Shown here piece after piece: positions 1-63,102 of a stretch of 63,102 bases of DNA. Origin of the DNA: a virus (taxonomy: Duplodnaviria > Caudoviricetes); IMG/VR virus record IMGVR_UViG_3300031952_000016, positions 1 through 63,102 of that record; one strand, given 5' to 3'. The position numbers and the translations under genes are program-made. How positions within the stretch are numbered: position 1 is the first letter of the stretch; every line of letters starts with the position of its first letter. A model generated the notes under the pieces. That model ran no database searches, had not been told where the DNA came from, and worked only from the letters and a program-made list of their open reading frames with translations.

Positions 1-29
1 GTTTGAACAATTTAAAAACAAATAAGATT

Positions 30-221
30 ATGGAATTAGTAAAAAGATTTGGGATAGGTTGCGTAGGGTTTTTAATTATGTATTTGATGTGTTCATTTTA
101 TAATGTAACATTTGACATATCAAAATGGAGTGCAGAATCAAGGTTTATAGCAACTATGATTGGAGGGTTTTCCTTTGCAATGTTAGCTACTTTTCCAAAT
201 TATAATTTTAAAAAAGAATAA
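30..221 (+). CDS. small membrane protein (accessory cassette)
   Basis: ATG at 30 follows the junction motif AAACAAATAAGATT; two hydrophobic segments; ends FKKE*. Confidence 0.7.
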   Translation: MELVKRFGIGCVGFLIMYLMCSFYNVTFDISKWSAESRFIATMIGGFSFAMLATFPNYNFKKE

Positions 222-222
222 G

Positions 223-420
223 ATGAGATATATTATAATACCGTTAGCAATAATCCTTTATTTATACTGGAGTTATAAAGCAATTGATAATTTAATTGAT
301 TGCTATAAAAACCCATATTTGGATGGAACTGATGGAGAAGATTATACTTCTGCATGGCTTCTTACACATTTATCTATCTTATTTGGAATCATTGTGTATT
401 TTGTAATTAGATATTGGTAA
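223..420 (+). CDS. small two-TM membrane protein
   Basis: ORF track; hydrophobic N- and C-terminal stretches. Confidence 0.7.
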   Translation: MRYIIIPLAIILYLYWSYKAIDNLIDCYKNPYLDGTDGEDYTSAWLLTHLSILFGIIVYFVIRYW

Positions 421-450
421 AATTTATTAAACAATTTAAAAAGAAATAAG

Positions 451-537
451 ATGATAAGATTTATTATATGGTTAATGTTTCAACCTTTTAAGTTGGTATA
501 TGATTGTTTATTTATGAATCCATTTAAAAAGAAATAA
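451..537 (+). CDS. 28-aa hydrophobic peptide
   Basis: Manual translation MIRFIIWLMFQPFKLVYDCLFMNPFKKK*, bounded by junction motifs on both sides. Confidence 0.55.
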   Translation: MIRFIIWLMFQPFKLVYDCLFMNPFKKK

Positions 538-540
538 GTT

Positions 541-1305
541 ATGAAAAACATATACGTATTACCAACATCACAACCAAGTAGGTTAGTTAAGCAAAAATAT
601 GATACACTTGATAGACTATGTTTAGCTGATATAGCCACAAAAAGAACTGAATATAAAAGATTTAACATCTACATCAATTCTGATGAAGAAATTAAAAAAG
701 GAGATTGGGTTTATTCAGAAGCAAGAAAAACTTTGTTTAAAGTAAAATCAATTTGTAATACTTCTGCTGGTTATCTTCTTATTGAAGATGATGTTATTAT
801 GCCTTTAGAAATTAATGAAGTTGATTGTAAAAAAATAATCCTAACAACAGACCAAGACTTAATCAAAAATGGTGTACAATCTATTGATGATGAGTTTTTA
901 CAATGGTTTGTAAAGAATCCAAGTTGTGAGAATGTTGAGGTTGAGGAAGAAGACTACTCTCAAAAATGTAGAGAATGTGGAGAAACTGTAAAGAGAGGTT
1001 ATAGTTGTAAAAAAGGATGTTTTATGAGAGCAGGTAATTTTATACCTACAGATGAAAATATAAAATACAAAATAATTATTCCAAAAGAAAAACCTAAACA
1101 AGAAACACTTGAAGAAGTTGCTGAAATATATGCAAGTCATTCATTAAAAGAAGAAAGACAAAAAGATTTAAATATGGGTTTTAAAGAAGGTGCTAAATGG
1201 CAACAAGAGAGAAGTTATAGTGAGGAGGATATGAAACAAGCATTTAGAGGATTTGCATCAGGAAAAAGTTTTAAAGACTGGTTTGAACAATTTAAAAACA
1301 AATAA
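541..1305 (+). CDS. mosaic hypothetical protein (MKNIxVLPT...SDEEIK...KQETLEE...WFEQFKNK type)
   Basis: ORF track; shares DNA blocks with ORFs at 62365-63102. Confidence 0.8.
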   Translation: MKNIYVLPTSQPSRLVKQKYDTLDRLCLADIATKRTEYKRFNIYINSDEEIKKGDWVYSEARKTLFKVKSICNTSAGYLLIEDDVIMPLEINEVDCKKIILTTDQDLIKNGVQSIDDEFLQWFVKNPSCENVEVEEEDYSQKCRECGETVKRGYSCKKGCFMRAGNFIPTDENIKYKIIIPKEKPKQETLEEVAEIYASHSLKEERQKDLNMGFKEGAKWQQERSYSEEDMKQAFRGFASGKSFKDWFEQFKNK

Positions 1306-1306
1306 T

Positions 1307-1477
1307 ATGGAGAAAGGCACAACTTATACAGAAAATGAAATGGAAGAGATAGAGTTTCTTGAAGAAGAAATAAAAACTATTTTTTACAAAGATTATATAC
1401 CTGATAATTTAGCTAAAATAGGAACTAAGATGATTAACAAATGGAAACAATTAACCAATTGGAAAGAAGCAAATTAA
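1307..1477 (+). CDS. hypothetical protein
   Basis: ATG immediately after the FKNK* junction. Confidence 0.65.
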   Translation: MEKGTTYTENEMEEIEFLEEEIKTIFYKDYIPDNLAKIGTKMINKWKQLTNWKEAN

Positions 1478-1480
1478 ATT

Positions 1481-1738
1481 ATGAAGAAATTATTATTATT
1501 AGGAATGTTTGCTATAATGTCTTGTAGCAAACCCGAGAGTGAAGAAGTTAAGGCTGATTGTAATTGCGATAGAATAGTGGAGATAGTTAACTACAATATT
1601 GTAGGAAACGCACAAAGTCCTGCACTTAAATATTACAGTAATTACACAACAATAAATGATTGCACTCAAATACAAAGAAGCAAAACAAGTAGTACAACAA
1701 ATTCTAGTTTAATTCCCAAAAAGGGACAATGTAAATAA
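1481..1738 (+). CDS. Cys-containing lipoprotein
   Basis: MKK + hydrophobic core + IMS-C lipobox. Confidence 0.7.
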   Translation: MKKLLLLGMFAIMSCSKPESEEVKADCNCDRIVEIVNYNIVGNAQSPALKYYSNYTTINDCTQIQRSKTSSTTNSSLIPKKGQCK

Positions 1739-1741
1739 GTT

Positions 1742-2134
1742 ATGAAAATAGAAAGAATCGTATCGAGAGAGATACTTGAAAATGTATTAGTAACCGCACT
1801 TGAAGGCGGTAGTAACTATTGGTATTACTTGACTGACGATGCAGTCAAACTAATTAGAAAGGTTGTGCCTAACAATGAAGACCCTTATCTAAGCACGGCT
1901 ATATTAAAAGCAGTACTAGACCATCACATTGACATACCTATCAATGATGCAGAGAATGAGGATGATGTGTTAGGCTACTTGAGCCACAAGACTATGATGT
2001 CAAGGCTTCAAGAATTGTCAGAAGACAAAGGATGTATGTGGGCATTAGATAGAGAGCTTGAAGGACAAGGAGACGCAGACAGTAGTGATGTTGTCTTTCA
2101 GTGTTTGGTAATGGGAGAATGTGTATTCGGATAA
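1742..2134 (+). CDS. hypothetical acidic protein
   Basis: ORF track, tight packing with neighbours. Confidence 0.75.
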   Translation: MKIERIVSREILENVLVTALEGGSNYWYYLTDDAVKLIRKVVPNNEDPYLSTAILKAVLDHHIDIPINDAENEDDVLGYLSHKTMMSRLQELSEDKGCMWALDRELEGQGDADSSDVVFQCLVMGECVFG

Positions 2135-2148
2135 TTAATAGAAATAAT

Positions 2149-2451
2149 ATGAAAGATAAAATTGTACAATCGGTTTTGGAAAAGTACCAACAACGTTCAG
2201 AAGTTGGTCAAGAAAAGTATGGTGTTACCTTAGAGCGTAACGACCTCAACTTCCTGCAATGGTTAAACCATCTGCAAGAAGAATTAATGGATGCAACTCT
2301 GTATGCTGAAAAGCTAATGCTAGAGCTACAAGAAAGCTCTGCATTCCCGGATGGGCACGTTATTTCAAAAGAATCTTGGGATACTGCAGACAAGATAATC
2401 CACGATGGATTTACCTATGTAAGATTTACGGACTTAAAATTTTATAGATGA
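2149..2451 (+). CDS. MazG-like/all-alpha nucleotide pyrophosphohydrolase
   Basis: GQEKYGVTLERNDL...HLQEELMDATLY (EExxD motif). Confidence 0.6.
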   Translation: MKDKIVQSVLEKYQQRSEVGQEKYGVTLERNDLNFLQWLNHLQEELMDATLYAEKLMLELQESSAFPDGHVISKESWDTADKIIHDGFTYVRFTDLKFYR

Positions 2452-2579
2452 AATATAAGTTTTACGGATTCATAGCTTGGATGATTATAATAGTAGTCAT
2501 CTCTTTATCAATATTAATATTAATAAGATAATTGTTAATAACATTATTACTAAATTGCAAAACTTATGAAAATTATTTG

Positions 2580-2587
2580 TAGTTTTG
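2580..2587 (+). promoter_or_regulatory. Bacteroidota -7 promoter box
   Basis: TAGTTTTG matches TAnnTTTG, intergenic, upstream of the recombination/replication genes. Confidence 0.55.
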
Positions 2588-2609
2588 CTTTTTAATTAAA
2601 TCAAATGAA

Positions 2610-2912
2610 ATGAAAGAAGATGTGTTCAATCAGTACGTTGATAGGGTTGTGGACCTATTCAACATAGACAGAGAAGTTCTATTCTCAAAGTCTAAGCAAA
2701 GACATATAGTAGATGCACGACAGTTACTATATTACCTATGTTACAGTAGGAAAATGCAATTAGTTACTATCAAGAAGTTTATGAATGACAGAGGATGTTC
2801 TATCCTCCACAATTCAATCGTTAACGGTGTTAAGAACGTTGAGCTTAAGCTCGAGGAAGACAGAGACTACCAAACCGTTATCAGAGACATAGAGAAAGCA
2901 GTATTTATATAA
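2610..2912 (+). CDS. DnaA C-terminal-like helix-turn-helix protein
   Basis: SKSKQRHIVDARQLLYYL...HNSIVNG resembles DnaA domain IV. Confidence 0.6.
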   Translation: MKEDVFNQYVDRVVDLFNIDREVLFSKSKQRHIVDARQLLYYLCYSRKMQLVTIKKFMNDRGCSILHNSIVNGVKNVELKLEEDRDYQTVIRDIEKAVFI

Positions 2913-2931
2913 TTTAATTTAATCAAATCAA

Positions 2932-3582
2932 ATGGAAAAAACAACATTCGAGAAATTGTCAGCTATCAATATGAACGCTCATACTGAGAAGAAAAGCAAC
3001 CTGACTTACCTTAGTTGGGCGTGGGCGTGGGGAGAGACTAAAAAGACTTGTCCTGATGCCACTTACAAAATTGGAGAGACAGACTATGACGAAGCACTTG
3101 GCTTTATGTGTCATACTACTGTAACAATCGCAGGAGAAACTTTAGAGATGTGGCTACCGGTTATGGATGGAGCCAATAAGTCTATGAAGAAAGTAGCCTA
3201 TACGTATCAAACAAAATACGGAGAGAAGTCAGTAGAGGCTGCAACAACATTCGACATCAACAAGACTATTATGCGTTGCTTGGTTAAGAACCTTGCTATG
3301 TTTGGTATGGGTATCTATATCTACGCAGGAGAGGACTTGCCTGATACTCCGGTAGAGACTACTGCTGTAGCAAAGCCATCAGCAAGTAACCTTAAGAAAG
3401 AGATTGAACTATCTGACCTTAAGAAAGGTACAGATGATTGGGAGAAAGTAGTTAAGTACGTTACAGCCAACAAAGAGTTGGGTATTGAGAAGATTGGTCA
3501 ACAGTTAACTCGTAAGTACAAAATCAGTCCTGCACTTAAAAAAGAAATCGCTAAAATAGTAACAACCACAAACGTAGAATAA
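2932..3582 (+). CDS. single-strand annealing protein, Sak3/DUF1071-like
   Basis: EKKSNLTYLSWAWAW, WLPVMD, INKTIMRCLVKNLAMFGMGIYIYAGEDLP. Confidence 0.8.
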   Translation: MEKTTFEKLSAINMNAHTEKKSNLTYLSWAWAWGETKKTCPDATYKIGETDYDEALGFMCHTTVTIAGETLEMWLPVMDGANKSMKKVAYTYQTKYGEKSVEAATTFDINKTIMRCLVKNLAMFGMGIYIYAGEDLPDTPVETTAVAKPSASNLKKEIELSDLKKGTDDWEKVVKYVTANKELGIEKIGQQLTRKYKISPALKKEIAKIVTTTNVE

Positions 3583-3583
3583 T

Positions 3584-4315
3584 ATGCAAGTACTAGAATT
3601 ATTAAAAGACGACAGAGAATACTACTCAGGTATTGGTAAGAATTACCTTTCAAACTCAGACATCGGAACATTGCTAGAGAATCCAAAAGAGTTTGGTAAG
3701 CCTAGAGAAGACAACAAAGCATTTGCAGAAGGCAGATACTTTCATCAGTCAATACTTGAGCCTGAGAAGATTAAAGATGTACCATTCGTTGATGTGAGTA
3801 CTCGGACTACTAAAGAGTACAAAGCATTTTGCGAAGCAAACAACCTACCTTTCTGTTTGCTGAAGAAAGAGATTGACGAGATTAAAGGTCTAGTTAATAT
3901 TATCAATAGTAATATTGTATTCTTTGAGGAGATATACAAGACCGGTAATCAGTTTGAGGTTCCTGCTATTGGAGAGATACAAGGTATGATGTGGAAAGGT
4001 AAGGCAGACATCGTAACAGATGATTGCATCATTGACTTGAAGACCACTAGTGATATACAGAAGTTCAAATGGAACGCAAAGAAGTACAACTATGACTCTC
4101 AGTGCTACATATACCAACACTTATTCGGTAAGCCTCTAGTGTTCTATGTGATTGACAAGGTTACAGGAATCCTAGCGGTGTTCAAGCCTACGCAAGAGTT
4201 TGTAGACGGAGGAGCAGTTAAGGTATCAAGAGCAATCGATATGTACCAAAGATACTTCTCAGAGAATCCATCAGACGACATCGACAACTATTACATTGAC
4301 GAATTTTTATACTAA
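3584..4315 (+). CDS. PD-(D/E)XK exonuclease (RecE/ExoVIII-like)
   Basis: LSNSDI, GRYFH, KGKADIV...IIDLKTT, YDSQCYIY; adjacent to the annealase. Confidence 0.8.
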   Translation: MQVLELLKDDREYYSGIGKNYLSNSDIGTLLENPKEFGKPREDNKAFAEGRYFHQSILEPEKIKDVPFVDVSTRTTKEYKAFCEANNLPFCLLKKEIDEIKGLVNIINSNIVFFEEIYKTGNQFEVPAIGEIQGMMWKGKADIVTDDCIIDLKTTSDIQKFKWNAKKYNYDSQCYIYQHLFGKPLVFYVIDKVTGILAVFKPTQEFVDGGAVKVSRAIDMYQRYFSENPSDDIDNYYIDEFLY

Positions 4316-4320
4316 CAATA

Positions 4321-4360
4321 AACCAACTATCATCTCAGCCTTAGGGGGTGGTAGTTGGTT
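4321..4360 (+). promoter_or_regulatory. 16-bp RNA hairpin between exonuclease and SSB
   Basis: AACCAACTATCATCTC pairs with GGGGTGGTAGTTGGTT; the three non-Watson-Crick positions are all G-U. Confidence 0.65.
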
Positions 4361-4395
4361 CAAATAGACTAAGGCAAACTAAAACATTATTTACA

Positions 4396-4701
4396 ATGGC
4401 ACAAGAAGAAAAGATTTTCGCAGACGGTTTCTTATTCAAGAGAAACGAAAAAGCCCCTGACTTCGTAGTAGGGAGAATTAGTATCAAAGTTGATGAAGCA
4501 ATCGCTTTCATTAAACAACACCAAAAGAATGGATGGGTTAACCTTGGGGTTAAGACAGCTCGTAGTGGTAACTACTACATTGACCTTGATACTTTCGAGT
4601 CAAAGAGTCAAGAAGGCGCAGTTGATAAGTACGAGGCTAAAGCAAAAGCTGTCGCTCCTGTAGAAAAAGAAGACGATTATGATGATGATGTTCCTTTTTA
4701 G
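4396..4701 (+). CDS. single-stranded DNA-binding protein
   Basis: KRNEKAPDF motif, acidic tail ending DDDVPF, position after annealase and exonuclease. Confidence 0.65.
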   Translation: MAQEEKIFADGFLFKRNEKAPDFVVGRISIKVDEAIAFIKQHQKNGWVNLGVKTARSGNYYIDLDTFESKSQEGAVDKYEAKAKAVAPVEKEDDYDDDVPF

Positions 4702-40404: not shown

Positions 40405-40764
40405 CTACACTAGTATATAAATTATTATCCCTACTATTGAAGATATAACCCAACTAGCAACAACATCTTTATCGCTTTCAAATTGGTCAGGTCTGCTCTT
40501 TCCTTTATAACTTGCATACATACCTTGCCCTCTTTCAAATCCCCAATACAAAGCAAGTGGTACAAATAGTAACACAAAATACTGAAACCACAATGCTTCA
40601 TTAAGAAGGAATAACTTGTACTTAAGCGTTAATGAAAAAAATATAATAAATCCAACACTTACAAAAATGTGTTCAATCCAATTGTTTGCTACTATTTTCT
40701 CTTTGTTCTTCATATCTTGAAAATAAGAGATGAATACTTTTTTTATGTAATTTAATGTTTCCAT
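40405..40764 (-). CDS. membrane protein
   Basis: Three hydrophobic segments. Confidence 0.65.
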   Translation of the reverse strand: METLNYIKKVFISYFQDMKNKEKIVANNWIEHIFVSVGFIIFFSLTLKYKLFLLNEALWFQYFVLLFVPLALYWGFERGQGMYASYKGKSRPDQFESDKDVVASWVISSIVGIIIYILV

Positions 40765-40765
40765 T

Positions 40766-41098
40766 TTAATTAAATTTAATTGCATCTATACAATGCTTCT
40801 CGGTTAATATCCACACAAGAACTTTTCCTGTATTTGTTAAGTTGTTTAATAATATATTCTTTCCCAAAACACTTGATATTGTTTCTCCTTGTAATCCAAA
40901 TGGATAAGATATTTTATTTTTTATTAAATGATTATTCCAAAAAGTTCTAAACTCAACATTTCCCCAAATATCTAGATTTAAAGCAGTGCTTCTGAAATAA
41001 CCTTTCTTATTTTTTACTTCAATAAAATTTATTATAGTCATTACAAAAATAAGAATTAATGCTAGAGTAAATAATAAAAACCCTTTTATTTCTTTCAT
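40766..41098 (-). CDS. hypothetical protein with an N-terminal TM segment
   Basis: ORF track. Confidence 0.65.
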   Translation of the reverse strand: MKEIKGFLLFTLALILIFVMTIINFIEVKNKKGYFRSTALNLDIWGNVEFRTFWNNHLIKNKISYPFGLQGETISSVLGKNILLNNLTNTGKVLVWILTEKHCIDAIKFN

Positions 41099-41099
41099 A

Positions 41100-41486
41100 C
41101 TACAAAGGAGTAAAATCCCAATCTTCTATATGAGTTTTAAAGTTTTGACCATTTTCCATAGTTAATTGAATTACTGTAAATTGCGTAACTCTCTCTAATA
41201 TACTATTTAATAACGCCAAAGAGTTTATAGGAGGAAGTTGAGCTATTTCAACATAAGCAACTGTATTCCAAGACATCAGTGTTGTAATGTTTCTTAACTT
41301 AACCACCTTTTCAACCTCTACTTCATTTAGGATTTCTGGTATCTTATAGTAATAATATCCTTTTGCGGTTATATCATTCCTATCCATATATAAATTTTCA
41401 ATGGTAAGATATATTTCTTTGTTATATATTACATTGTAACTTATATCTAAAATATCAAAAGGTTTGTTTGTTTTAATTGTTAACAT
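41100..41486 (-). CDS. tail-fibre-associated protein
   Basis: Position directly after fibre and lectin genes. Confidence 0.5.
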   Translation of the reverse strand: MLTIKTNKPFDILDISYNVIYNKEIYLTIENLYMDRNDITAKGYYYYKIPEILNEVEVEKVVKLRNITTLMSWNTVAYVEIAQLPPINSLALLNSILERVTQFTVIQLTMENGQNFKTHIEDWDFTPL

Positions 41487-41495
41487 AATATTTTT

Positions 41496-42251
41496 TTAAA
41501 AGTTAGGGTAATAGTTTGTTTGTAATGTTGCTACTTGTGTAGCTGTAAGAGCAGCATTAAAAATATATAATTCATCTATAGTACCTACAAACTTAATACT
41601 TCCTGATGCCGATGCACCGATTACAGGTGTTATTGCTGTGTTTCCCATACTAAGATAAGTACCAAAAATTACATTGTTAGTAGATTGTAATGCATTATTA
41701 ACATATAACTTAATCCCAGCAGCTGTTCCACTACCATCATAAGTTACAACTACATATTGTACAGCACCTGTTGGTATTGTTGCAATAGTCTCAACTAAAA
41801 GATAAGCTCCTCCTGCAGTTCTATTTAACAACAACAATGCTAATCTACCGTTGGTTCTAACATAGAATAGATATTCTGAAGTATTATCATTAGCACCACT
41901 GTATTTACTAAAGATTCCATTATTAGTAGCGTAGTTATTAATTCTAATATTTGCTTTAATTGAAAAAGGTTTATCTACACCATTACCTACTCCTGTACTT
42001 GTTGTAAATGAAAATACATCATTATCGGGAATAGTTATTCTTGTAGTTGTAGTAACTGTAAATTGTGCTGCTAATCCATTAACTGCATTTAATGTAGAGA
42101 ATGTAGTACCTACACCCACTGTACCATTATACCCACCTGTATGTGAATCATTACCATTGTTTTCAAACTTATAAGCAGCTATTAGTAAGTTTTTAAAACT
42201 TGCTGGTGCTGTTATTATATTATAATAAAATATGGGATTAAATGTACTCAT
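41496..42251 (-). CDS. LamG/concanavalin A-like lectin domain protein
   Basis: AAYKFENNGND, YVVVTYDG, KLYVN, FVGTIDELYIFNAALT. Confidence 0.8.
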   Translation of the reverse strand: MSTFNPIFYYNIITAPASFKNLLIAAYKFENNGNDSHTGGYNGTVGVGTTFSTLNAVNGLAAQFTVTTTTRITIPDNDVFSFTTSTGVGNGVDKPFSIKANIRINNYATNNGIFSKYSGANDNTSEYLFYVRTNGRLALLLLNRTAGGAYLLVETIATIPTGAVQYVVVTYDGSGTAAGIKLYVNNALQSTNNVIFGTYLSMGNTAITPVIGASASGSIKFVGTIDELYIFNAALTATQVATLQTNYYPNF

Positions 42252-44677
42252 TAGTAATTAGTTATTTGTAAATAATAAATACTACCATTTCTTGATAAAC
42301 AAGCTTTACTTCCTGCCACTCCCGTCATAGCAGCTGTTCCTGATAAAGTTGTAAGTGTTACTCCTGCCCCTGCTGTAAAAGTAATAGCTCCTGTTCCTAT
42401 TTTTTCGTAACTTGCTACAAAATCTGCATTAGAAGTTGTTTGAACAGTTAAGTTTATTGCATTAGCTCCGTTTGATATTTTATTATGTCTACCGTGTTGA
42501 CCATAAGTACCATTTGTTGTATCTGTAGTTATTGAAACAGCAGTTGTAATAGTAATTACATTTACATTTACAGCATCAATTTGTGTTTGAATAGGACTTG
42601 TTACTCCTTTTACATTTGCTAATTCTGCTAAACTGGGGTAAATTGTAGTATCTAAACCTGCTATATTGCTACCATTTGATGTAAAGTAAGCAATTTGATT
42701 AGTTAATGCTGCTCCTGTTACTGTTCCTGCACCAATAGCTATTCTAAATGTAGAAGCATCTAATGTTGATATACTATTGTCAGCATTAATCTGTATAAAT
42801 GTAATTGCAGAAGGATTAGCAAGGATAAATAAATTACTGCCAACTGTGTTTGCTCCTAAAGATGTTCTACCTATTGCAGCAACTAATCCTGTTGCTCCCC
42901 CATCCCATTTTAATCTATCTGTATAAGCTGTATTAAAATTTGTCCAATCTGTTGTGCTTAATGCTCCTCTGTTAGATGCACTTGCTGTTGGTAAATTAAA
43001 TGTATGTGTGTCAAGTAAACTATTAATAGTAAAGTCAGTACCGCTTGTACCTACTGCTAAATATTGTGTATTTGCAGTTAATCCATTTAATGAAGTTACA
43101 CCACCTGAAAAAGTAGTAATGATTTCACATAAATGACTATTTTCAGTATGTAATGTAGCTGTTCTACCACCTGAATTATCAACTATATAAACTCTAATAG
43201 CAAGTCTATCTGTAACTAATAATGCTGTTGTAGGAACTGCTAAAGATGTTAAATATAAATCAATTGGAATACCTCCACTTATTGTTTCAGGCGTTGCAGA
43301 GTTTGATGCAATACTTGTAAAAGTTGTGCCATTATATTTTAAAAGTTCAACATAAAATTTAGGACTTCCTCCACCTGAAGACATACTAAAAAACATCTCA
43401 AAGTTCCACGCACCCCCTGGTATCTCAGTTCTATTTGGATTACCTACATCTGTTAAAAACTGTGCTATTAATCCATTACCTGTTAATGGAAAGTCAGTAC
43501 CTGCTCCAATTATTGCAGTGTTTGACATCTGCTTATAAGTTGCAACTGATGCAGCAATTGAACCATTTAAATAATAATTAACAGAAGAACCGCCACCACC
43601 ACCACTTGGGAAAGTTGCTAATTGTCCATCTCCTCTAACATATTGAGAGGCAGTTCCTGCACCAGTTATTGCAAATGTACCTGATGTAGTTATTGTACTA
43701 GGCGTAACATTAAATGCAGAAGGCACAGTTAATCCAACAGATGTTACTGCTGTAGTTAAATATGTAGATGTATCAAGAGTGAATGTGCCTAATGCGCTCA
43801 TCTTAACAAATCCTAGAGAAGAATATGTAAGTCCTGATAAAGACGTAAGATTAGTTGATAATGGTTGTCCATTTAGTCCACTTAATGTGTACGTTGGTAT
43901 ATTTAAGACTCCTGCTATTAATGTAGAGGGTCCTGAATTTCCTGTTACTGTTAAAGACGTAACTGTAGAATCGGAATTAGTTATCCATTCTAACCCCCCG
44001 GCCCCAACGCTTAAAACTTGATTTAAAGAACCGTTACTGTCCGTACTATCTTTTATATCAGTAGGTTTTATGTACCCATTTAAAATAATATTATTTGTAG
44101 CTGTATTTCCAACCAATAAAACATCAGCTAAGCCTGCGGTATATACTGTAGGATTATTTATCCATCGTACCCCCGATGCTGTTTTTGAAAGTATCTGACC
44201 TGTTGTTCCTACTCCTGAAGTATCATCTTGTATGTTACCCGGTATTATCTTTGTTGCCGTGATGTCTCCAACAAGATTTATATTTTGAGTAGCAGTATTC
44301 CCTGTATTAAGAACTGCCTGAAGATTACTTATAGGTAAATCTACCCAATTTATACTTGACGTTCCTTTACTAAGGTATTGAAATGTAGTTCCTTGACTTC
44401 CTGTTGGGTCCTCAATATTCACAGGTTTTATTAATGTAGCATTAATAGTTCCTATCAATGTAATGTTTTGAGTAGCAGTATTTCCTGTATTAAGAACAGC
44501 CTGCAACGAAGCTGCAGGAAAGTTTGAAGAGAACAATTGCAACAACTCCCCTAGCGAGAAGTTCTTTGTCGCAAGAGGAGTTGAAGTAGGCGGTGTTCTA
44601 ATAGCTTCCGTACCTATCAGCCTATCGCTTAATTGTAAAGGGGTATCCGCTGAAGGATAAGTAGATATTTTAGACAT
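42251..44677 (-). CDS. tail fibre protein
   Basis: Thr/Gly-rich; three LxxVLxxGNTATxNI repeats; N-terminus shared with the neighbouring fibre. Confidence 0.75.
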   Translation of the reverse strand: MSKISTYPSADTPLQLSDRLIGTEAIRTPPTSTPLATKNFSLGELLQLFSSNFPAASLQAVLNTGNTATQNITLIGTINATLIKPVNIEDPTGSQGTTFQYLSKGTSSINWVDLPISNLQAVLNTGNTATQNINLVGDITATKIIPGNIQDDTSGVGTTGQILSKTASGVRWINNPTVYTAGLADVLLVGNTATNNIILNGYIKPTDIKDSTDSNGSLNQVLSVGAGGLEWITNSDSTVTSLTVTGNSGPSTLIAGVLNIPTYTLSGLNGQPLSTNLTSLSGLTYSSLGFVKMSALGTFTLDTSTYLTTAVTSVGLTVPSAFNVTPSTITTSGTFAITGAGTASQYVRGDGQLATFPSGGGGGSSVNYYLNGSIAASVATYKQMSNTAIIGAGTDFPLTGNGLIAQFLTDVGNPNRTEIPGGAWNFEMFFSMSSGGGSPKFYVELLKYNGTTFTSIASNSATPETISGGIPIDLYLTSLAVPTTALLVTDRLAIRVYIVDNSGGRTATLHTENSHLCEIITTFSGGVTSLNGLTANTQYLAVGTSGTDFTINSLLDTHTFNLPTASASNRGALSTTDWTNFNTAYTDRLKWDGGATGLVAAIGRTSLGANTVGSNLFILANPSAITFIQINADNSISTLDASTFRIAIGAGTVTGAALTNQIAYFTSNGSNIAGLDTTIYPSLAELANVKGVTSPIQTQIDAVNVNVITITTAVSITTDTTNGTYGQHGRHNKISNGANAINLTVQTTSNADFVASYEKIGTGAITFTAGAGVTLTTLSGTAAMTGVAGSKACLSRNGSIYYLQITNY

Positions 44678-56805: not shown

Positions 56806-56823
56806 ATTTAAAACCAAATAAAG

Positions 56824-57006
56824 ATGAGAACACGAATGAACACAAAGGTTGATGTTACAAATGTAATACAACAAATTGAGATTGAGATTAGAGCCTATTC
56901 AAAAGCGGTACGTACTATAATGCTACTTAAGAAGGTGGAGTACAAGGACGCAAAAAGAATTTTGGAAATGAGATTAACTGAACGTTTAATATTTAAAACA
57001 GCATAA
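56824..57006 (+). CDS. hypothetical protein, paralog of 57644..57814
   Basis: IQQIE...YKDAK.IL..RLTERL.FK.A. Confidence 0.7.
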   Translation: MRTRMNTKVDVTNVIQQIEIEIRAYSKAVRTIMLLKKVEYKDAKRILEMRLTERLIFKTA

Positions 57007-57643: not shown

Positions 57644-57814
57644 ATGAATGACAACCAAGAATTAGCAAGCGCTATTCAACAAATCGACTATGAGTTTAAT
57701 GCGTACTGTAATGCAATCAGAACAGTAATGAAATTAGACAACGTAAAGTACAAGGATGCAAAGGCTATCCTAGACAGAAGACTAACCGAACGTTTACTAT
57801 TTAAAAAAGCATAG
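57644..57814 (+). CDS. 56-aa paralog of 56824..57006
   Basis: Manual translation MNDNQELASAIQQID...YKDAKAILDRRLTERLLFKKA*. Confidence 0.7.
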   Translation: MNDNQELASAIQQIDYEFNAYCNAIRTVMKLDNVKYKDAKAILDRRLTERLLFKKA

Positions 57815-60303: not shown

Positions 60304-61113
60304 ATGTGCATAGCAATTTTAAACACGAAAAAAGCAGGTAGATTACCTAAGAATCAAATCAAAAACTCTTGGGATAACAATGATATGGGAGCAGGTCTCC
60401 TATGGAACAAAGACGGTAAGTTAAATGTATTCAAGTCGTATGACTATGATGACTACATAGACAAGTACAATGCCCTTAGAGATGACAATACCATCAACAG
60501 TATAGTGTTACATTTCAGGATAGCCACTAGTGGTTACAATGGAGAGCATAACCTTCATCCCTTTCTTGTCAATGACAACGTAGGATTTGTACACAACGGA
60601 GTCATTAGTGGACTAGGTAACAAGACCTTCTCAGACACGTATGAATTTAATGATATGCTTAAAAAGTTTAAGCACGATTTCTTATCTTGCGATATGAGTA
60701 AGTTCTTCATATCAGAGTACATAGGGTACAGCAAGCTAGTGTTCTTAGATAACAAAGACAAGCATACCATTATCAATGAGGAGTTAGGTAAGTGGTCCAA
60801 TGGTAATTGGTACTCCAATGATTCCTACAAAGAGTACAAGCCCTATGTTTATTATGGGAATCAAAAGGTTGCTAAGACGGATGTTGCAGGCAGTAAGACC
60901 TACCCTCACTATGATTACAGCAAAGATGCGTGGGATGATTTAGACGAGGGAATAGAGTATGACGAGTGGGATGTGTATGACTACCTATGTAGCGTGTACG
61001 GACTAAACCCTGAGGCAGACGATTCAATAGATGAGTTAGAGACGTATATGACGCTGAACAACGTAGACAACATCATAGATTTGTACAAAATCATAGGCGG
61101 GGAAATGGAATAA
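60304..61113 (+). CDS. class II glutamine amidotransferase
   Basis: N-terminal Cys (MCIAI), HFRIATSG, HPF, FVHNG, SDT. Confidence 0.85.
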   Translation: MCIAILNTKKAGRLPKNQIKNSWDNNDMGAGLLWNKDGKLNVFKSYDYDDYIDKYNALRDDNTINSIVLHFRIATSGYNGEHNLHPFLVNDNVGFVHNGVISGLGNKTFSDTYEFNDMLKKFKHDFLSCDMSKFFISEYIGYSKLVFLDNKDKHTIINEELGKWSNGNWYSNDSYKEYKPYVYYGNQKVAKTDVAGSKTYPHYDYSKDAWDDLDEGIEYDEWDVYDYLCSVYGLNPEADDSIDELETYMTLNNVDNIIDLYKIIGGEME

Positions 61114-61758: not shown

Positions 61759-61834
61759 GGGGGATTAGCTCAATTGGTAGAGCCGTGAGCATAGGCATAA
61801 CGAGGTTACAGGTTCGAGTCCTGTATTCCCCACT
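61759..61834 (+). tRNA. tRNA with a non-canonical anticodon arm (identity undetermined)
   Basis: GGGGGAT/ATTCCCC acceptor, GCTC-AATTGGTA-GAGC D arm, ACAGG-TTCGAGT-CCTGT T arm; anticodon arm malformed; no CCA. Confidence 0.7.
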
Positions 61835-61852: not shown

Positions 61853-62368
61853 ATGAAAACAGTAAGAGAAAAAGTAATTGAACAGATTAGACTGCAGGAG
61901 AAAATGCAAAGTCTAGCAAAAGTAAACCTAGTTACTTGTGGTAATTGTGGTGCTACATTATTGCACGAGCTGAATGAAGAGCAAATTGACTGCTTTGCGT
62001 GTGGTAATATGATTGACCAATCAGACTGCCCGGACTATTGGTATAGTGGACTAGAGAACTCAGAAGAGTACAATAGAGAGGAGCCTACTCTTTATGGAAA
62101 GTTAATTGACATAGAGGTTAATGAAGCGGTAGAACTCAGCACTATCATCAAACAAGAAAACATTGAGAACGCAAAAAAACTACTTAAAAGTGAGGGCTAC
62201 TATATAGACAGCCTTTGGACGACAGATGACGTTACAGAGAACTACAATTGCACAGAGGAACAGGCTCAAGAGGTGCTTGATAGCGCATTAAATAACGAGG
62301 CAACTATGCAACAGATATGGGATGCCATCAAGTGTAGTGCAGAGGATTTAAAACTAAAAGAGATATGA
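61853..62368 (+). CDS. zinc-ribbon hypothetical protein
   Basis: CGNC...CFAC. Confidence 0.7.
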   Translation: MKTVREKVIEQIRLQEKMQSLAKVNLVTCGNCGATLLHELNEEQIDCFACGNMIDQSDCPDYWYSGLENSEEYNREEPTLYGKLIDIEVNEAVELSTIIKQENIENAKKLLKSEGYYIDSLWTTDDVTENYNCTEEQAQEVLDSALNNEATMQQIWDAIKCSAEDLKLKEI

Positions 62369-62622
62369 AACAAGAAACACTTGAAGAATTTATTTTTAAA
62401 GTTCCTTTTGATTATAACATCAAACCTAAAGAGGTTATTAATATGTGTATGAAAGAACAAGAAAATATTATTCTTACTTGGAGATTAGGTTATTTTATAG
62501 ATATGATTAATTCTTTACCTGATGACACAGAAAAGAATAGAATATTAAAATCTGTTTTTGATAACAGAGATGGAGAATTATTATTAGAATCTTATAAATC
62601 AATGAAATCACATTATGAATAA
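62365..62622 (+). CDS. hypothetical protein starting MKQETLEE
   Basis: ORF track. Confidence 0.7.
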   Translation: MKQETLEEFIFKVPFDYNIKPKEVINMCMKEQENIILTWRLGYFIDMINSLPDDTEKNRILKSVFDNRDGELLLESYKSMKSHYE

Positions 62623-62863
62623 ACAAGAAACACTTGAAGAAGCTGCTAAAGAATTTTTTAGAAAATTTAAACATACACACAGTCCTGATAATTATTATTT
62701 AGCTTTAGTTGAATTTGCTAAATGGCAACAAGAAAGAAGTTATAGTGAGGAAGATTTAAAAGAAGCATTTAAACAATCTCGATAATATTTTATATTCCAA
62801 AAAGATATGCCACCATTATATAAAAATTTTGAAGAATGGTTTGAACAATTTAAAAACAAATAA
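62615..62863 (+). pseudogene. KQETLEE...WFEQFKNK type gene interrupted by an in-frame TAA
   Basis: TAA at 62783-62785; the same frame continues to WFEQFKNK* at 62863. Confidence 0.7.
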
Positions 62864-62866
62864 ATT

Positions 62867-63102
62867 ATGAAAAACATACACGTATTACCAACTTTACAAG
62901 CAAGTGAATACTTCATTAACAAAGAAGGTATTCTATCAGAAAGTTATTCACTAAAAAGAGGGGGTGCAGTACATTTCTACATCACTTCTGATGAAGAAAT
63001 TAAAGAAGGTGATTGGTTTATTACAGACAAAAACACAATTTGTAAATGTGTTAGAGTAGATTGGAAATATGCTTACTCTATTGAAGCAGGAAGTAGAAGT
63101 AA
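62867..63102 (+). CDS. partial paralog of 541..1305, truncated by the window end
   Basis: MKNIHVLPT...FYITSDEEIKEGDWF; open to the end of the window. Confidence 0.75.
   Translation, partial: MKNIHVLPTLQASEYFINKEGILSESYSLKRGGAVHFYITSDEEIKEGDWFITDKNTICKCVRVDWKYAYSIEAGSRS

Follow-up and report, generated by a model that had tools for sequence, protein, structure and literature searches.

A repeated gene junction in an uncultured phage reads as the codon-conserved terminal block of a large mosaic protein family

The 63,102-base virus record IMGVR_UViG_3300031952_000016 carries an array of small genes (g07 to g15) at its two ends, in which one short, A-rich sequence recurs where one gene stops and the next one starts. 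This stretch, called the window below, is the whole IMG/VR record; it is classed as linear and has a CheckV completeness of 100. We find that the junction is best read as the last of six homology blocks in a mosaic family of phage proteins, a block that ends one gene, leads into the next, and acts as a point of exchange. We put the probability of this reading at about 0.72. An initial annotation of the window had instead taken the junctions to be recombination boundaries between unrelated genes, at which single-gene cassettes are inserted, swapped, or lost.

The motif is indeed repeated far more often than chance allows, as that annotation held. With up to three mismatches, a 24-mer occurs four times in the window (2-25, 426-449, 1282-1305, and 62840-62863) against 0.00 expected, and a 15-mer core with up to one mismatch occurs seven times against 0.31 expected, five of the seven inside the array. 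Three exact 26-nucleotide copies are coding, specifying the final residues (W)FEQFKNK and the stop codon of g13, g08, and, provided that the record ends join, the last open reading frame (ORF) of the record. Elsewhere in IMG/VR, an exact 20-mer is present in at least 120 contigs, nearly always at the end of an ORF and with an ATG within a few bases, and 81 of 86 matches to a degenerate back-translation run straight into a stop codon. These data indicate that the motif is not a free-standing junction: it encodes, in frame, the C-terminal octapeptide and the stop (WFEQFK[KN]K and stop; the tail) of a large mosaic phage protein family.

Alignment of 70 homologues, in which the cluster representative P0001 stands for g13 (the two differ by one residue), revealed six conserved blocks, five variable segments, and an optional Cys-rich insert. 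The g13 protein aligns over its full length with the 69 others and has the six blocks in their full order, with WFEQFK[KN]K and a stop at its end. The family consists of an N-domain (blocks B1-B3) followed by a C-module made up of B4 (KQETLEEAAE), B5 (GAKWQQERMYSEE), and B6 (WFEQFKKK and stop). When the tail was removed from the coding bodies upstream of it, 141 of 153 unique bodies matched a hidden Markov model (HMM) of the C-module and 42 also matched the N-terminal domain; ten matched neither HMM, and about five of these are truly unrelated.

One gene outside the family, whose product begins MNSGCFKKG, ends in AVEQFKNK in locus L142 (5348-5791) and in AVEQFKKSKDGNI in locus L127 (7779-8189), while the relatives compared in L125, L128, L129, and L135 end in AVEEYGR or AVKDYERLL. 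In L142, the usual junction comes after this tail-like end, and an unrelated gene may here have captured a tail.

The family is very large. Of 8,000 clusters scored at 90% identity, 7,851 match it at E ≤ 1e-3, as do 5,235 representatives of 50%-identity clusters, and short stand-alone C-modules number 497. Reference collections hold little of it: Pfam has no model of the family, PHROG has none for the C-module, and phrog_15656, a group of unknown function, covers part of the N-domain. A tblastn search with g13 found no match in 50,697 GenBank phage records, and with a second family member it found only N-domain matches in Bacteroides phages, at 29.6% identity. Among 185,579 species genomes, the family occurs in only 11 contigs of metagenome-assembled genomes, four of them labelled Flavobacterium. 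A profile search of the PDB found nothing, and the ESM Atlas returned only viral hypothetical proteins (scores 0.83-0.85). The block peptides were absent from the main texts of the literature searched, and a keyword search of the literature for a Flavobacterium-phage multigene family found nothing relevant. Taken together, these results point to a very large, uncharacterised, mosaic family from uncultured phages that probably infect Flavobacterium.

The blocks are conserved in their DNA as well as in their protein sequence. In the 86 tails of the degenerate sample, the codons are nearly fixed (TTT in 86 of 86, GAA in 85, CAA in 82, TTT in 84, and AAA in 86). AAG encodes the second Lys in 83 of the 86, although AAA makes up 86% of the Lys codons in the bodies of the same genes; likewise, the form AAA-AAG-AAA accounts for 34% of 486 internal KKK sequences versus 82% of 151 C-terminal KKK sequences followed by a stop. 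Over 37 block positions, the share of the modal codon is 0.87 (median 0.92), and 13 of the modal codons are non-preferred ones, such as CTT for Leu in ETLEE (0.86 versus 0.19 overall), AGT-GAG in YSEE, and CTA..GAC in LTTD. In contrast, amino-acid-conserved columns of three control sets, orthologues of the exonuclease, the annealase, and a DnaA-type helix-turn-helix (HTH) protein (g21, g20, and g19), have modal-codon shares of 0.57-0.61, as codon usage predicts. The motif is also found outside the tail context: among 241 unique core sites, 181 end open frames of at least 40 codons and 36 are orphans, including 11 in which the TAA within the motif ends an ORF read in another frame and some that come after terminator-like hairpins (L115, L116). 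The tail thus appears to be one of six blocks that are conserved at the codon level and at which exchange happens, and we infer that recombination is what causes this codon-level identity.

The tail also has the features of a leader for the gene that follows. The ATG lies 0-8 nucleotides past the stop in 198 of 236 core sites, most often at a spacing of 1 (98 sites), 3 (41), 4 (30), or 2 (22). A at positions -3, -6, -12, and -13 is found in 72% of 146 tail junctions, compared with 15% of 3,122 other gene starts, taken from these loci as controls; these are the positions where A stimulates initiation in F. johnsoniae, according to the account by Baez et al (2019; PMC6847099) of the Kozak-like regions of Bacteroidota that lack a Shine-Dalgarno (SD) sequence. 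Junction RNAs fold weakly or are unstructured (z scores of 1.20, 1.45, 0.09, -1.97, and 0.35). Gene starts across the window also lack SD sequences and are A-rich at -14..-10, -6, and -3 (A = 0.54-0.65 at -14..-10), with little G. Judged by these features, the tail, the stop, and a spacer of 1-5 nucleotides form a near-ideal SD-less leader for the next gene. The A residues, low G, and low structure are shared with the initiation regions treated in PMC6847099; what sets the junction apart from them is a leader fixed as a sequence of 15-25 nucleotides that overlaps the last five codons of the previous gene. Programmed frameshifting or read-through at the A-rich tail was also considered and was rejected because the spacing between stop and ATG varies, so that the frame relation of tail to ATG is not fixed.

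Between the blocks, the variable segments appear to reassort almost freely. Counting segments derived from the alignment as shared at 60% identity or more, we found V1 in common in 147 of 2,415 pairs; of these, only 3, 9, 3, and 4 also share V2, V3, V4, and V5, respectively. Similarly, V3 is common to 284 pairs, only nine of which also share V1.

Homology between relatives starts and stops at the tail in several places, in keeping with the part of the initial annotation that placed recombination boundaries there. L128 and L129 do not differ as far as block B2; they then diverge, and identity resumes exactly at the motif. L193 and L216 have in common one cassette of 111 amino acids (97.8% DNA identity) between unrelated flanks, bounded on the left by the tail of the previous gene and on the right by its own. 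Between the window and L116, the match over g07-g08 begins at block B4 and ends at the tail. At the level of sequencing runs, for which the data are assembled Logan contigs, a 335-nucleotide contig of run X3 (record 17) matches window positions 207-454 with one difference; its first 87 nucleotides are not on the window. In that sample, therefore, the left neighbour of g11 is a different one, and the change of neighbour falls at the junction (207). Most other loose contig ends come with no matched length and were set aside. To quantify the breakpoints, we took the internal ends of matches of at least 97% identity in ten pairs: 3 of 22 lie within 20 nucleotides of a core, against a background of 0.59% of positions, and one further end lies 27 nucleotides away.

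The array itself sits in a variable island whose gene content differs among relatives, a result in support of the annotation. Across 26 backbone genomes, the island from g05 to g19 has no C-module in 19, one in four, two in two, and three in the window, and family genes sit at three different positions in these islands.

How could one short sequence do all of this? Block B6 encodes the conserved C-terminal octapeptide and the stop codon, and its Lys codons, together with the stop and a spacer of 1-5 nucleotides, form a near-optimal SD-less Bacteroidota leader for the next gene. The blocks are nearly identical in DNA across thousands of copies in co-occurring phages, so that each would offer a short patch of homology where recombination could swap segments and small genes; an exchange at the tail would spare both the stop of the gene before it and the start of the gene after it. 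At the level of sequence, the octapeptide and stop, the leader, the codon conservation, the reassortment of segments, and the coincidence of breakpoints with blocks are all borne out. On this evidence the mechanism would be ordinary homology-driven shuffling at coding blocks rather than a dedicated cassette system, which supports the idea of recombination boundaries in part. More tentatively, and with somewhat less than even confidence, we suggest that the family is a recombination-driven system of combinatorial diversification in uncultured Flavobacterium-type phages. In this view, the six blocks anchor crossovers that keep reshuffling variable segments and whole cassettes, both inside one phage and among co-infecting ones, the terminal block is a portable stop-plus-start adaptor by which the two neighbours stay expressed after any exchange, and synonymous identity is kept for recombinability or by gene-conversion drive.

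We weighed four other explanations against this reading of the junction as a terminal homology block. If the motif recurred through paralogy alone, by protein-level selection on a shared C-terminal peptide, the DNA and RNA would have no role and the exchanges would be incidental. The common module of most tail-bearing bodies, the many core sites that are in-frame ends of long frames, and the membership of four array genes in the family all fit this idea, but it does not account for synonymous sites far more uniform than those of control genes, with non-preferred codons fixed, or for the orphan cores, the ORFs that stop inside the motif in another frame, the untranslated copy at 421-450 in the window, and the enrichment of breakpoints at the motif; we consider it unlikely. 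Selection on the sequence purely as an SD-less, A-rich initiation region, with the Lys-rich peptide as a by-product, would explain the placement of the A residues, the closeness of the ATG to the stop, and the orphan copies behind hairpins. Yet the conservation runs upstream past the leader positions, through TGG TTT GAA CAA, blocks in the interior of genes and distant from every start codon are equally codon-conserved, and the tail travels with one protein module, so a pure leader seems to us very unlikely.

The mosaic and its breakpoints might also come from chimeric assembly, with contigs passing from one co-occurring phage to another where the two have k-mers in common. Read depth rises to 133-176 over positions 800-1400, compared with about 20.7 elsewhere, contigs from four runs end at the edges of blocks, and the record itself starts exactly at a copy of the tail. 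Against such an artefact, thousands of independently sourced proteins show the same mosaic, more than one sample can have the identical arrangement (as in L018/L052 and L021/L032), and unitig-level contigs of run X3 support the order g11-remnant-g12-g13 locally; moreover, the blocks are shorter than the large k-mers usual in assembly. We regard this explanation as highly improbable. Hardly credible, in our view, is the dedicated, integron-like system that single small genes between repeats, and the L193/L216 cassette between two tails, might bring to mind, with the junctions as attachment sites of a site-specific recombinase. The record encodes no tyrosine or serine recombinase, the junctions lack inverted repeats or foldable sites, exchanges occur at internal blocks too, and the family is found in phages of 30-219 kb with five different recombinase families, all of which had already put this idea out of favour.

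Several observations weigh against the terminal-block reading. The breakpoint sample is small (22 ends from 10 pairs), and 19 of the ends are not at the motif. With no family member in 19 of the 26 backbone relatives, the block is not needed for the plasticity of the island. All comparative data are metagenome assemblies, in which shared blocks of 20-50 bases could cause chimeric joins, and the uneven depth and the contig breaks at block edges just described count here as well. The site at 204-225 is not derived from the tail: it is a weak match (13 of 15 to the core) within the C-terminus of g10 itself (204-221), and since relatives of g10 at 68% identity end in NYNFKNN, its likeness to the motif is only generic. 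Avoidance of A-runs in general accounts for part of the preference for AAG. The FEQFK codon counts in the KKK and modal-codon analyses include loci fetched with the exact 20-mer, a bias that touches neither the 86-tail degenerate sample nor the counts for the other blocks. Finally, homogenisation of junction strings within genomes is weak, at 4 of 25 pairs versus 0.96 expected, a level reached in 37 of 2,000 shuffles. The idea of recombination boundaries survives in part: besides the homology edges, the motif also occurs untranslated and its synonymous sites are conserved. The tail is, however, no special element joining unrelated genes but one of six equally DNA-conserved exchange blocks, and a conserved peptide and the SD-less leader of the next gene together account for much of its sequence.

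The exchanges would be carried out by phage recombinases, here the Sak-type single-strand annealing protein and the PDDEXK-type exonuclease, which are the candidate drivers. The initial annotation had called the annealase Sak3-like; its Sak type is well supported by the PF06378 match, while the assignment to Sak3 in particular is not. The same annotation reported no integrase, and neither PF00589 (tyrosine recombinase) nor PF00239 (serine recombinase) was found in the whole record. We also surveyed recombinases in 49 other tail-bearing records, on contigs of about 24 kb or more, from among the matches listed and with no control set; Sak is present in only 1 of the 49. Of the 17 records whose completeness is 90% or more, 15 carry a recombinase of one kind or another that passes the cut-off, one has a weak RecA-like match, and one has none, a result compatible with the driver role that the initial annotation had proposed. 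The families found in these 17 are Sak (1), RecT (4), ERF (5), AAA_24 (3), and RecA (3), with record G024 having both AAA_24 and RecA.

Within the array (Table 1), the genes are not all unrelated, as had been claimed: g07, g08, g09, and g13 are members or fragments of the one family, whereas g10, g11, g12, g14, and g15, which have no match to the family HMMs, do stand apart. The HMMs match g08 over B4-B6 and g09 over B1-B2 plus the tail; g07 has B4 only, followed by a body with 96% protein identity to the C-terminal part of a 256-residue N-domain protein in L116. The 21-nucleotide B4 block is exact at both 62368 and 62621. The g08 gene is interrupted by an in-frame TAA (62783-62785) that aligns with CAA in L049 (88.7% nucleotide identity), and the g09 frame, which matches phrog_15656 (E = 1.3e-5), continues into bases 1-25 to give the tail minus its W. 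We interpret the array as a variable island with an intact g13, three fragments or pseudogenes (g07, g08, and g09), an orphan tail, a scar ORF, and unrelated small genes in between.

The annotated junction sites fared differently. Those at 1-32, 1280-1309, and 62838-62869 are exact in-frame tails, the first being the end of the last ORF (62867..63100) provided that the record ends join; 428-453 is a remnant and 521-543 a core, leaving 204-225 as the site without a tail origin. Downstream of the g11 stop, the motif is untranslated and out of frame, just as described. Every relative of g11 ends in W, without the tail and without the motif behind it, and therefore the stop of g11 is native and the remnant at 421-450 derives from a lost tail-bearing gene. 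The start of g12 copies that of g11 (75% over 40 nucleotides) and its end is the tail core, so g12 is probably a scar ORF. A joint from 450 to 541, which would delete g12, was not counted, as it is most simply the tail-to-MKNIH junction of another phage. For g14 there was no relative in IMG/VR, while g15 has relatives in L135, L138, and L142; together they close the variable island ahead of the backbone gene g16.

Very small hydrophobic ORFs of 30-65 residues recur between family genes in other loci as well (L105 8251-8620, L114, and L128/L129 7314-7418), some with an in-frame tail and some stopping at the TAA inside the motif; g10, g11, and g12 of the window fit this pattern.

Table 1. Array genes, tail copies, g13 blocks, and candidate recombination genes of the window.
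Feature	Position	Strand	Description
g07	62365..62622	+	85 aa; starts with block B4 (MKQETLEE)
g08	62615..62863	+	Stand-alone C-module (B4, B5, B6); tail block 62838-62863 (site 62838-62869)
g09	62867..63102 (ORF 62867..63100)	+	N-domain fragment (B1, B2) running off the record end
Tail block copy	1..25	+	FEQFKNK and stop at record start (site 1-32, exact copy); then g10 ATG at 30
g10	30..221	+	Small hydrophobic protein, non-family; ends NYNFKKE and stop
g11	223..420	+	Small hydrophobic protein, non-family; native stop
Orphan untranslated tail remnant	421..450	+	Leader of the next ATG at 451
g12	451..537	+	28-aa mini-ORF; 3' end matches the 15-mer tail core exactly (523-537; site 521-543)
g13	541..1305	+	Full-length family member, 254 aa; site 1280-1309 is an exact in-frame tail
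g13 blocks, N-domain	B1 541-585; B2 664-708; B3 829-930	+	N-domain
g13 Cys-rich insert	931-1065	+	
g13 blocks, C-module	B4 1066-1125; B5 1189-1230; B6 tail 1279-1302, stop 1303-1305	+	C-module
g14	1307..1477	+	Non-family cassette
g15	1481..1738	+	Lipoprotein-like start; non-family; relatives in L135, L138, L142
Sak-type single-strand annealing protein	2932..3582	+	PF06378, E 7e-45, 152.7 bits vs cut-off 22.3
PDDEXK-type exonuclease	3584..4315	+	PF12684, E 7.6e-22

The backbone around the island, in the order g01-g02-..-g05-g06-[variable]-g16-g17-g19-g20-g21, is kept in 66 relatives obtained through exonuclease homology. Because this synteny makes the two ends of the record adjacent in relatives, position 63,102 probably joins position 1; as the record begins exactly at a repeat copy, where a Logan contig of run X1 likewise ends, a small gap between the ends is possible. 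The primase, annealase, and exonuclease have relatives in the circular 60.8-kb environmental phage MW202828.1 and more distant ones in phages of Flavobacterium, Polaribacter, Cellulophaga, and Bacteroides, and the runs containing window DNA are freshwater and sediment metagenomes. The host, in our estimation, would be Flavobacterium or a related member of the Bacteroidota.

Some further features of the window lie outside the array. A tRNA-Leu gene (anticodon TAG; 61759-61833), the sole match of an Rfam search, lies just upstream of g06 and marks the left edge of the variable island. The nearest GenBank relative, MW202828.1 (L124), has annotated groES and groEL genes at 40671-42561. An ORF of 269 codons (60304-61113), whose product starts with MC, has a weak N-terminal match to glmS glutamine amidotransferase models (E = 3.5e-4, far below the cut-off), and its homologue in MW202828.1 is annotated as a gamma-glutamyl cyclotransferase. 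The small ORFs at 56824-57006 and 57644-57814 are paralogues (55% identity over 56 residues, E = 8e-22), and a motif-like leader at 56807-56821, one mismatch from the 15-mer, precedes the former. The intergenic region 2532-2609, 5' of the DnaA-HTH gene, contains TAGTTTTG, which fits what we take to be the Bacteroidota -7 promoter consensus, TAnnTTTG, and may be the start of a replication and recombination operon. The product of the ORF at 4348-4701 ends in an acidic DDDVPF tail, presumably like that of bacterial and phage single-stranded DNA-binding proteins; a Pfam search of 4393-4701 found no family.

These findings bear on a long-standing question about phage mosaicism, namely whether it arises by homologous exchange at short conserved sequences or by random illegitimate joins followed by selection. 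The family offers thousands of natural replicates, with conserved sequences of 20-50 nucleotides inside and at the ends of genes and with breakpoints that can be read directly. The work also brings to light a very large protein family, of 5,235 clusters at 50% identity, that has no Pfam model, functional PHROG, or cultured representative, and it provides a defined sequence for testing SD-less initiation and the translational linkage of neighbouring genes in Bacteroidota. Should the blocks indeed form a diversification system, their identity would be kept because exchange needs it, and not for protein or leader function alone.

Integrons, too, are arrays of single small-gene cassettes, with attC sites and the IntI integrase, and the array shares with them a recurring boundary sequence. 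It differs in that the window has no integrase and no attC-like imperfect palindrome, no such inverted repeat having been found at the array boundaries, and in that the boundary here is translated. The var genes of Plasmodium, which encode PfEMP1, likewise have conserved blocks among hypervariable segments that reassort by recombination across many paralogues; those are eukaryotic antigen genes, while the blocks and segments here belong to phage genes.

Closer to phages, De Paepe et al (2014; PMC3945230) described mosaicism that phage Rad52-like recombinases drive through homology, in temperate lambdoid phages and in prophage remnants. Both cases have exchanged fragments bordered by short or diverged homologies, along with a phage-encoded single-strand annealing protein (Sak in the window); ours differs in that the homologies are blocks that recur, conserved in their codons, throughout one multicopy family.

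The closest described parallel appears to be the PeSL cassettes of T4-type phages, intergenic promoter and terminator stem-loops of about 100 bp that flank small non-essential genes in hyperplastic regions, with recombination between these repeats proposed as the means by which single genes are inserted, lost, or swapped and their expression signals preserved (Arbiol et al, 2010; PMC2839356). No PeSL-type promoter and stem-loop was found here: positions 1-3000 have 0 terminator-like sites, and the sigma-70 scan used does not cover Bacteroidota promoters. Compared with PeSLs, the junctions are alike in that short repeats flank small genes and the differences between close relatives adjoin the repeat. 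They differ in that the repeat here is coding, a C-terminal peptide and stop joined to a translation leader rather than a transcription signal, and in that it is one of six blocks within one family, such that segments of genes as well as whole genes appear to reassort.

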